From assembly GCF_030384885.1 (NCBI RefSeq), contig NZ_CP128613.1: a stretch of DNA of 64,000 nucleotides. One strand, written 5' to 3'. Every line of letters starts with the position of its first letter. Position 1 is the stretch's first letter. Shown piece by piece: positions 58,648 to 59,426 of the stretch. The notes below the pieces were generated by a model. The model was not told the origin of the DNA. It was given only the letters and a program-made list of their open reading frames with translations, and ran no database searches. Position numbers and translations under genes: made by a program. Origin of the DNA: Escherichia coli. Lineage in GTDB: Bacteria; Pseudomonadota; Gammaproteobacteria; Enterobacterales; Enterobacteriaceae.

Positions 58648-58724
58648 CCGGAAAGCGGTTCACAGATCTCGCTTCGAACCAGGCAGGCCTATTGACGCTG
58701 TTGTTTTTTCAACCTAAAGTAAAG

Positions 58725-58872
58725 GAACAAGGGTAAGGGAGGATTTCTCCCCCCTCTGAATTGGTTGTTAATAAGCCTGGAAACTTACTAGTAACAACAC
58801 AATCAGTATGATGACGAACTTCATCATAACCCTTTCCTTATGCAAGGCCCCTTCCTCGGGAGGGGCTTTCCC
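58725..58872 (+). ncRNA. sibE: Sib-type antisense sRNA (antitoxin of Ibs toxin), unit nearest hldE; 5' end approximate
   Basis: Plus-strand region fully antisense to the ibs ORF, ending in hairpin gcccct-tcctcggg-aggggc followed by tttcccgttt; plus-strand ORFs here (MMTNFIITLS...) are not taken as coding. Confidence 0.45.
58768..58827 (-). CDS. ibsE: Ibs-family type I toxin, 19-aa hydrophobic peptide MMKFVIILIVLLLVSFQAY
   Basis: Hand-translated minus-strand ORF (ATG ATG AAG TTC ... TAT TAA); typical Ibs sequence; symbol assigned from proximity to hldE and may be swapped with ibsD. Confidence 0.7.
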   Translation of the reverse strand: MMKFVIILIVLLLVSFQAY

Positions 58873-59101
58873 GTTTCAGCCCCTTGCTGGCTCCCCGATT
58901 GTTGATGAGCGCCGGACCCCGCGCAATGCTTTCCCTGATGCAGTTTTCTCTTCCCCGAGTCGGCTCGCAAAACGCTGTAACAACCTGATCATTTGCAGTT
59001 TTTTGTGGAACACAGATATAAAAAATCCCCGGTTTTTTGGGCCAGGGATATGTGTTAATGAAACCTTCTTGACGCTGATTTTTTTTCAACCTAAAGTAAA
59101 G

Positions 59102-59249
59102 GAACAAGGGTAAGGGAGGATTTCTCCCCCCTCTGAATTGGTTGTTAGTAAGTCGGGAAACTTAACAGTAACAACACAATCAGTATGATGACGAACTTCA
59201 TCATAACCCTTTCCTTATGCAAGGCCCCTTCCTCGGGAGGGGCTTTCCC
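59102..59249 (+). ncRNA. sibD: Sib-type antisense sRNA, second unit; 5' end approximate
   Basis: Second copy of the repeat; same terminator hairpin at 59224..59243. Confidence 0.45.
59145..59204 (-). CDS. ibsD: Ibs-family type I toxin, 19-aa peptide MMKFVIILIVLLLLSFPTY
   Basis: Hand-translated minus-strand ORF in the second repeat unit; differs from the first copy at four residues. Confidence 0.7.
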   Translation of the reverse strand: MMKFVIILIVLLLLSFPTY

Positions 59250-59392
59250 GTTTCAGCCCCTTGCTGATTCCCCGATTGTTGATGAGCGCCAGACCCCGCG
59301 CAATGCTTTCTCTTATGCAGTTTTCTCTTCCCCGAGTTGGCTCGCAAAACGCTGTAACAACCTGATCATTTGTACTTTTTAGCGGAACGCAG

Positions 59393-59426
59393 ATATAAAA
59401 AATCCCCGGCTTTTTGGGCCAGGGAT
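59393..59426 (-). terminator. Rho-independent terminator downstream of yqiK
   Basis: Minus-strand transcript folds as AUCCCUGGC-CCAAAAA-GCCGGGGAU (9-bp stem with one G-U) followed by UUUUUUAUAUC. Confidence 0.55.

Follow-up and report, generated by a model that had tools for sequence, protein, structure and literature searches.

The window analysed here, a stretch of 64,000 nucleotides from Escherichia coli (contig NZ_CP128613.1), contains two repeat units arranged in tandem in the intergenic region between hldE and yqiK, each of which combines a gene for an Ibs peptide of 19 residues on the minus strand with an antisense Sib RNA on the plus strand. We are highly confident that this region is the known hldE-yqiK tandem type I toxin-antitoxin locus of E. 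coli, which in K-12 consists of sibE/ibsE and sibD/ibsD, and that both of its units are apparently intact. The biology of the locus is already known, its RNAs are recognised by Rfam and its toxins are annotated in RefSeq for the exact genome.

Identity of the locus

The assignment is based on matches in Rfam, the RefSeq annotation of Ibs toxins, synteny and alignment with K-12 and the finding that the plus-strand open reading frames (ORFs) of the region gave no Pfam match at threshold, and these results bear out the initial annotation, which had described two tandem Sib/Ibs units as known biology. A scan of the whole window at the gathering thresholds of Rfam, which had been suggested as a check, identified two full-length matches to SIB_RNA (RF00113) on the plus strand, at 58692-58842 with 143.0 bits and at 59069-59219 with 142.7 bits (gathering score 56, E ~1e-29), both of which cover positions 1-147 of the 147 positions of the model, whereas the scores of 39.5 and 32.7 bits on the reverse strand are below the gathering score. 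An 841-bp region encompassing the locus shows 100% identity to the sequence of E. coli 2013C-4282 (NZ_CP027579.1). In the RefSeq annotation of this genome, WP_072148302.1 and WP_071821827.1, the products of the two small ORFs, are each designated 'type I toxin-antitoxin system Ibs family toxin'. Their family is taken from this annotation, since the peptides are shorter than the 20-residue minimum of the NCBIfam/Pfam scan. In K-12 MG1655, sibE/ibsE adjoins hldE and sibD/ibsD adjoins yqiK, and the hldE-yqiK intergenic region of the window aligns with its K-12 counterpart from end to end at 91.7% identity with an identical spacer between the units. The alignment to K-12 that had equally been proposed thus established that the units are orthologous to sibE and sibD by position, although their alleles do not correspond one by one. 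A strict pairing of unit 1 with ibsE and of unit 2 with ibsD, which we considered, holds for position and promoter and fails for the variable cassettes described below. The anatomy of the units, their family membership, their synteny and the distribution of their alleles are direct observations. On sequence alone, a predicted sigma-70 promoter and an intrinsic terminator bound a Sib RNA of the ~140-nt class, and a functional type I behaviour, where a toxic peptide is relieved by its cognate antisense RNA, would be expected by homology to the K-12 systems (PMC2943612).

Antitoxin RNAs and toxin genes

The Rfam model is offset from the annotated RNA, as its first ~35 positions correspond to the promoter (-35 to -1) and its end precedes the terminator hairpin. 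Since the -35 hexamer marks the start of the model and the terminator is not included in it, its ends are not transcript ends and the boundaries of the RNA are better defined by K-12, from whose annotation they were transferred through the alignment (Table 1). In the fold predicted by RNAfold, the Sib RNA contains an outer helix, a 5' hairpin and a long hairpin that carries the variable cassette in its apical part, which in the 3' part of the molecule are accompanied by a ATGATGAC…CATCAT hairpin, a single-stranded CCUUUCCUUAUGCAAGG stretch and the terminator hairpin, located at 59221-59245 in unit 2 (RNAfold and consensus fold). A consensus of seven Sib RNAs calculated with RNAalifold, comprising the two RNAs of the window and SibA to SibE of K-12, contains 44 pairs, of which 11 show compensatory changes, and the P1, P5 and P6 helices and the terminator hairpins were recovered by both programs. 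SibC, SibD and SibE have been described as NAD-capped RNAs, and the 35-bp sibD promoter, termed a 'minimal promoter' by Liu et al., is sufficient for the NAD capping of SibD (PMC12956327). Because unit 2 has the same 35-bp promoter as K-12 sibD and A is the first nucleotide of the two Sib RNAs of the window, we predict that they would carry the same cap.

On the opposite strand, the two highly hydrophobic 19-residue peptides proposed in the initial annotation exactly match our reading of the minus strand from 58827 to 58768 and from 59204 to 59145. Small ORFs lacking ribosome-binding sites had been named as an observation that would speak against the assignment; in both units, the ORF is preceded by AAGGAAAGGGTT-ATG and has the Shine-Dalgarno sequence AAGGAAAGGG. 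The description of the Sib RNAs as fully antisense is equally accurate, as the ibs ORF, its start codon and its Shine-Dalgarno sequence are all located inside the Sib transcription unit (58727-58871 and 59104-59248). According to Han et al. (PMC2943612), the ibs mRNA has a length of ~160 nt and extends by an 18-nt 5' overhang past the 3' end of Sib. Based on this overhang, transcription of the window's ibs genes would start near 58889 and 59266, and the putative promoter listed for ibs-1 in Table 1, which was placed from the sequence, is located at a distance that agrees with such a start.

These features suggest how each unit would work. A promoter of the sigma-70 type (TTGACG, 17 nt, TAAAGT) would drive the synthesis of a ~145-nt Sib RNA starting with A and ending at an intrinsic terminator, and a weak promoter on the opposite strand, just past the 3' end of Sib, would give rise to an ibs mRNA of ~160 nt. 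As established for the family, a hairpin loop of Sib, termed TRD1, would contact the 3' part of the ibs ORF and a single-stranded segment before the terminator, termed TRD2, the ribosome-binding site. The spreading of Sib-ibs pairing would then block translation and lead to degradation of the mRNA, and an Ibs peptide that escapes repression would insert into the inner membrane and be toxic. Sib RNAs are known as constitutively expressed antitoxins and Ibs peptides as toxic to the cell envelope when expressed, and according to a preprint on Salmonella, IbsA binds to subunits a and b in the Fo sector of ATP synthase and thereby lowers ATP.

Recognition domains and insulation of the units

The two repeats differ at 19 of 358 ungapped positions (94.7% identity). 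Two of these are located in the spacer of the Sib promoter, five belong to the Sib RNA and the other 12 are found in the 178-bp segment that follows it. The initial annotation had placed the differences predominantly in the toxin C-terminus and the antisense recognition region. This is correct for the five differences in the Sib/ibs overlap (58771, 58776, 58778, 58788 and 58789), which cluster tightly within 19 nt (permutation P ~0.001 within the 145-nt Sib) and which account for the substitutions V14L, Q17P and A18T and two synonymous changes, but most of the differences (12 of 19) are found outside the toxin and the antisense region. Four of the five fall into the equivalent of TRD1 (58774-58796, four of 23 positions) and the fifth is located 3 nt outside. 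In contrast, none of the 20 positions of the TRD2 equivalent differs between units, and this segment is part of an identical run of 100 nt (58790-58889). In K-12, sibD and sibE differ at three positions of TRD2 and by an adjacent indel.

The relevance of this distribution is illustrated by the recognition of ibsC by SibC, which proceeds via two independent domains, with TRD1 (+46 to +68, in a hairpin loop) targeting the ORF and TRD2, a single-stranded region at +99 to +115 that depends on the outer helix, targeting the translation initiation region, and where pairing spreads after the initial contact and the mRNA is degraded (PMC2943612). SibC derivatives with only one matching TRD still repress ibsC, and those that were given one TRD of the SibD type became able to repress ibsD (Han et al. 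2010, PMC2943612). The same authors attribute discrimination between targets to differences in both domains ('these regions are always variable'). In the window TRD1 differs and TRD2 does not, which bears on the insulation of the units rather than on their family membership. The initial annotation had viewed the substitutions as consistent with a repression by each Sib that is restricted to its cognate ibs. Since TRD2 is identical and either TRD alone can suffice for repression, a strictly cognate relationship is not assured, and the claim is thus unproven rather than wrong.

We regard the chances as evenly balanced that each Sib would also repress the neighbouring ibs through the common TRD2. 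The estimate was kept at this level by a counter-example, as SibA reportedly fails to repress ibsE although it has the same TRD2 region as SibE, which weighs against cross-repression in the window. The opposing view, that the units are fully insulated and that five changes within the TRD1/C-terminal cassette suffice to confine each Sib to its own ibs, falls in our estimate just short of an even chance. It is favoured by predicted duplex energies, which in the TRD1 region amount to -44.8 and -46.1 kcal/mol for cognate and to only -22.7 and -29.6 kcal/mol for non-cognate pairs, so that the five mismatches halve the energy of the latter, by the cognate-only repression observed in K-12 with the exception of ibsA, by the mentioned failure of SibA to act on ibsE and by a possible preference of regulation in cis for the local partner. 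Insulation is more difficult to reconcile with the identity of TRD2 and of the 100 contiguous nucleotides around it, with a duplex energy of the TRD2 region that is equal in all four Sib/ibs combinations, and with the described activity of SibC and SibD-type hybrids that match their target in a single TRD.

Probable exchange of cassettes between positions

The alleles of the window do not follow the order of their positions in K-12, as a cassette encoding the C-terminus QAY occupies the sibE position and an IbsE-type PTY cassette the sibD position. Unit 1 resembles K-12 sibE/ibsE (b4611/b4666) in its location next to the hldE stop codon, in the type of its promoter spacer (CTGTTGTTTTTT) and in its overall architecture, but it carries QAY instead of PTY, a -10 hexamer TAAAGT instead of TAGAGT, the TRD2 tetranucleotide ATGC instead of ATAC, and a peptide with F4 and I9 in place of L4 and V9. 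Its QAY cassette matches neither ibsD nor ibsE of K-12; the C-terminus …SFQAY is shared with IbsA. Unit 2 resembles K-12 sibD/ibsD (b4447/b4664) in its location next to yqiK, its identical 35-bp promoter and the A at +1, but its peptide ends in …LLSFPTY and its TRD2 tetranucleotide is ATGC, compared to …VSFAAY and CTGT in K-12, and the cassette is base for base the one of K-12 sibE, whose peptide ends in …SFPTY.

The locus was matched in 5,425 of 5,426 complete E. coli genomes, with an identity of at least 99% in only this strain, of 95-99% in 13 and of 90-95% in nearly all others, and the neighbouring 9 kb are ~96% identical to essentially every other complete genome. From these values, the strain is placed in a divergent lineage of E. 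coli, where the intergenic locus appears somewhat more diverged than its flanks. Compared to K-12, the identity is 96.7% for hldE, 92.8% for yqiK and 92.4% for yqiJ (window 48000-61761). The arrangement of PTY at position 2 with the junction found in the window is present in three of the 5,426 genomes at an identity of at least 99%, the QAY allele is found at 95-100% identity in ~277 genomes and the PTY allele in ~4,482.

A survey of 27 units from 15 loci, part of which were selected among the nearest relatives of the window so that they serve as illustration and not as a measure of population frequencies, revealed four exact TRD1 cassettes (PTY, AAY, QAY and HAY), each of which occupies position 1 in some genomes and position 2 in others. 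In the same units, the promoter spacer stays specific to its position and the TRD2 tetranucleotides (ATGC, ATAC, CTGT, CTAT and ATGT) assort separately. TRD2 is identical in both units of three of the 12 two-unit loci and differs by a single base in two more, including an O157:H7 strain. The presence of the four cassettes at either position indicates recombinational shuffling, and a recombination or gene conversion event between repeat units and alleles is the most likely origin of the rare combination in the window. With more reservation, and as a proposal that we consider possible but rather doubtful, the ~25-nt stretch encoding the toxin C-terminus and TRD1 might constitute a discrete exchangeable specificity cassette that is uncoupled from TRD2, where hybrids with different TRD1 and identical TRD2 would cross-regulate. 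A shallow search of the literature found no paper on cassette exchange or gene conversion in Sib/Ibs.

A single Sib/Ibs unit was found in six of 25 evenly spaced rows of the genome ranking (with loci L008, L009 and L017 as examples), and the respective genomes always keep the promoter of position 1 next to the yqiK flank, which is consistent with the deletion of one unit through recombination of the 358-bp repeats with each other. Among the single-unit genomes, JA0072 is recorded as a spontaneous mutant.

The remaining Sib/Ibs systems of K-12, sibA/ibsA, sibB/ibsB and sibC/ibsC, belong to the same RNA family, encode toxins of 18-19 residues and share the same fold, but they are located at other loci (yegL-mdtA and fau-serA), SibA and SibB have a G at +1 and the DNA further than ~20 bp beyond the 3' end of their Sib RNAs is unrelated to the repeat of the window. 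A small hydrophobic toxin, an antisense repressor and multiple or tandem copies with slight variation are also found in ldr/rdl, zorO-orzO/zorP-orzP and hok/sok, whose toxins and RNAs belong to unrelated families, whereas the antisense RNA of Sib/Ibs spans the functional mRNA completely.

Integrity of the units

Several points weigh against the described assignment of two intact units and their alleles. The ends of the Sib transcripts were transferred from the K-12 annotation, the expression of the locus in this strain and the toxicity of its peptides would follow from homology, the ibs promoter, placed from sequence, is weak by consensus, with matches at three of six and four of six positions of its hexamers, and the 15 sampled loci, which include close relatives of the window, provide no population estimate. 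The same weak promoter, together with a slightly degraded terminator copy in unit 1 and the prevalence of single-unit loci in about one quarter of the ranking rows (6/25), from which one unit appears dispensable, could be viewed as signs that one or both units are decaying relics that no longer express a functional toxin or antitoxin. This we consider very improbable, as both units contain intact promoters, an A at +1, a terminator, a Shine-Dalgarno sequence, a start codon and a complete ORF of 19 codons, both score as high in Rfam as any Sib, the same cassettes recur base for base in other strains and the non-synonymous changes leave the peptide hydrophobic.

Least credible of all is the notion that the plus-strand ORFs of 101 and 65 residues encode real proteins and that the Sib match is incidental, which we effectively dismiss despite their start with ATGATG and a 'hypothetical protein' called by PGAP at the locus in one related genome, since a Pfam search of these ORFs gave no match at threshold (best E-value 0.13), their lengths vary between 27, 59, 65, 96 and 101 residues across 27 homologous units with a frameshifting indel relative to K-12, both cross the Sib terminator and the longer one also the promoter of the next unit, and the sequence upstream of their start (ACAACACAATCAGT) contains nothing resembling a Shine-Dalgarno sequence. 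The initial annotation had already regarded these ORFs, which begin with MMTNFIITLS, as artefacts, and the lacking Pfam match and the variable length among strains support this view. ORFs of 72 and 38 residues on the minus strand were equally rejected as genes for want of a Pfam match, as were the two on the plus strand, whose lengths in addition are not conserved.

Architecture of the repeats

The two copies described in the initial annotation as direct repeats of ~358 bp are real, but this value refers to the length of a copy and the period from start to start is 377 bp. The distal ~160 bp of the repeat align with the sibD and sibE units of K-12 and not with the flanks of sibA, sibB or sibC, and a permissive Rfam scan detected no other family in this part. 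The segment 58890-59049 was thus ruled out as an element conserved throughout the family and instead is locus-specific DNA, in which the putative ibs promoter is located together with a copy of the terminator of yqiK. A simple and recent tandem duplication of 377 bp with a recognisable junction was equally discarded, since the 19-bp spacer resembles neither of the outer flanks and is the same in K-12, from which we conclude that the duplication is old.

Table 1. Features of the hldE-yqiK intergenic region in window coordinates
Feature	Position	Strand	Properties	Basis
Repeat unit 1, hldE side	58692..59049		358 bp; positional orthologue of K-12 sibE/ibsE	Repeat search, pairwise alignment, K-12 alignment
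Sib-1 promoter	58692..58726	+	-35 TTGACG 58692-58697, 17-nt spacer, -10 TAAAGT 58715-58720	Promoter scan, 9/12 matches; aligns with promoter of K-12 sibE +1
Sib-1 antitoxin RNA	58727..58871	+	~145 nt, A at +1	Rfam 143 bits, K-12 sibE ends, consensus fold
Variable cassette, TRD1-equivalent	58768..58796	.	Also encodes toxin C-terminus	SibC +46 to +68 maps to 58774-58796; TRD1 definition PMC2943612
ibs-1 toxin coding sequence	58768..58827	-	19 codons, MMKFVIILIVLLLVSFQAY, WP_072148302.1; Shine-Dalgarno AAGGAAAGGG at 58840-58831	ORF reading, RefSeq
101-aa ORF, artefact	58808..59113	+	Reads through Sib, terminator and next Sib promoter	No Pfam, unstable length, frameshifting indel in K-12
TRD2-equivalent	58827..58846	.	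Complementary to ibs start codon and Shine-Dalgarno	Same in both units
Sib-1 intrinsic terminator	58844..58868	+	Hairpin AAGGCCCCUUCC-UCGG-GAGGGGCUU, then U-rich tail	RNAfold, consensus fold
Putative ibs-1 promoter	58889..58926	-	-35 TTGCGC 58926-58921, 17-nt spacer, -10 AACAAT 58903-58898; start near 58889-58891	Read from sequence
Copy of yqiK terminator hairpin within unit 1	59024..59050	-	Slightly weakened by T at 59033	Alignment of units
Inter-unit spacer	59050..59068		19 bp, ATGTGTTAATGAAACCTTC	Same in K-12
Repeat unit 2, yqiK side	59069..59426		358 bp; positional orthologue of K-12 sibD/ibsD	Repeat search, K-12 alignment
Sib-2 promoter	59069..59103	+	35 bp same as 35 bp upstream of K-12 sibD +1	Promoter scan
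Sib-2 antitoxin RNA	59104..59248	+	~145 nt, A at +1	Rfam 142.7 bits, K-12 ends, consensus fold
ibs-2 toxin coding sequence	59145..59204	-	19 codons, MMKFVIILIVLLLLSFPTY, WP_071821827.1	ORF reading, RefSeq
65-aa ORF, artefact of the same kind	59185..59382	+		No Pfam, unstable length
yqiK intrinsic terminator	59401..59427	-	Distal end of unit 2; 10 pairs, then TTTTATATCT	Terminator scan

Other features of the window

Outside of the described locus, the window contains a full-length FMN riboswitch (RF00050) at 62686-62834 on the plus strand (120.9 bits, gathering score 66.2), located upstream of an ORF at 62938-63591; from the synteny with yqiJ, glgS and ubiK, this riboswitch presumably represents the leader of ribB. 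At 20580-20959 (+), an array of the REP/BIME type is formed by four tandem naRNA4 matches (RF02564) with 64-74 bits and a distance of ~100 bp. ARAGORN assigned the single tRNA gene at 36550-36625 (-), with the anticodon CAT, as tRNA-Met; it could instead encode the lysidine-modified tRNA-Ile2 (ileX), which is located in this part of the K-12 map. A gene for an RNA-guided endonuclease of the InsQ/TnpB family is annotated at ~51330-51710 in the source genome. At least 80% of the 9-kb stretch 48000-57000 is covered in only 146 of 5,426 genomes, which suggests an insertion that varies between strains and is located among bacA, cca, ygiF and glnE. Finally, a marginal Rfam match to the small RNA ES036 (CssrF) was found at 464-504 (-), with 38.4 bits compared to a gathering score of 37.6.

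Implications

The practical value of the presented analysis concerns genes of 19 codons and antisense RNAs, which escape the size cut-offs applied to ORFs and at the same time yield spurious ORFs on the antisense strand. What is added to the known biology of Sib/Ibs is modest and relates to the shuffling of recognition cassettes between tandem positions across E. coli. If the proposed uncoupling of the TRD1 cassette from TRD2 were true, the locus would represent a natural experiment on antisense specificity that is reshuffled by gene conversion of short tracts. The strain investigated here, where TRD1 differs and TRD2 is identical, offers a natural test of whether neighbouring units communicate through TRD2 alone.

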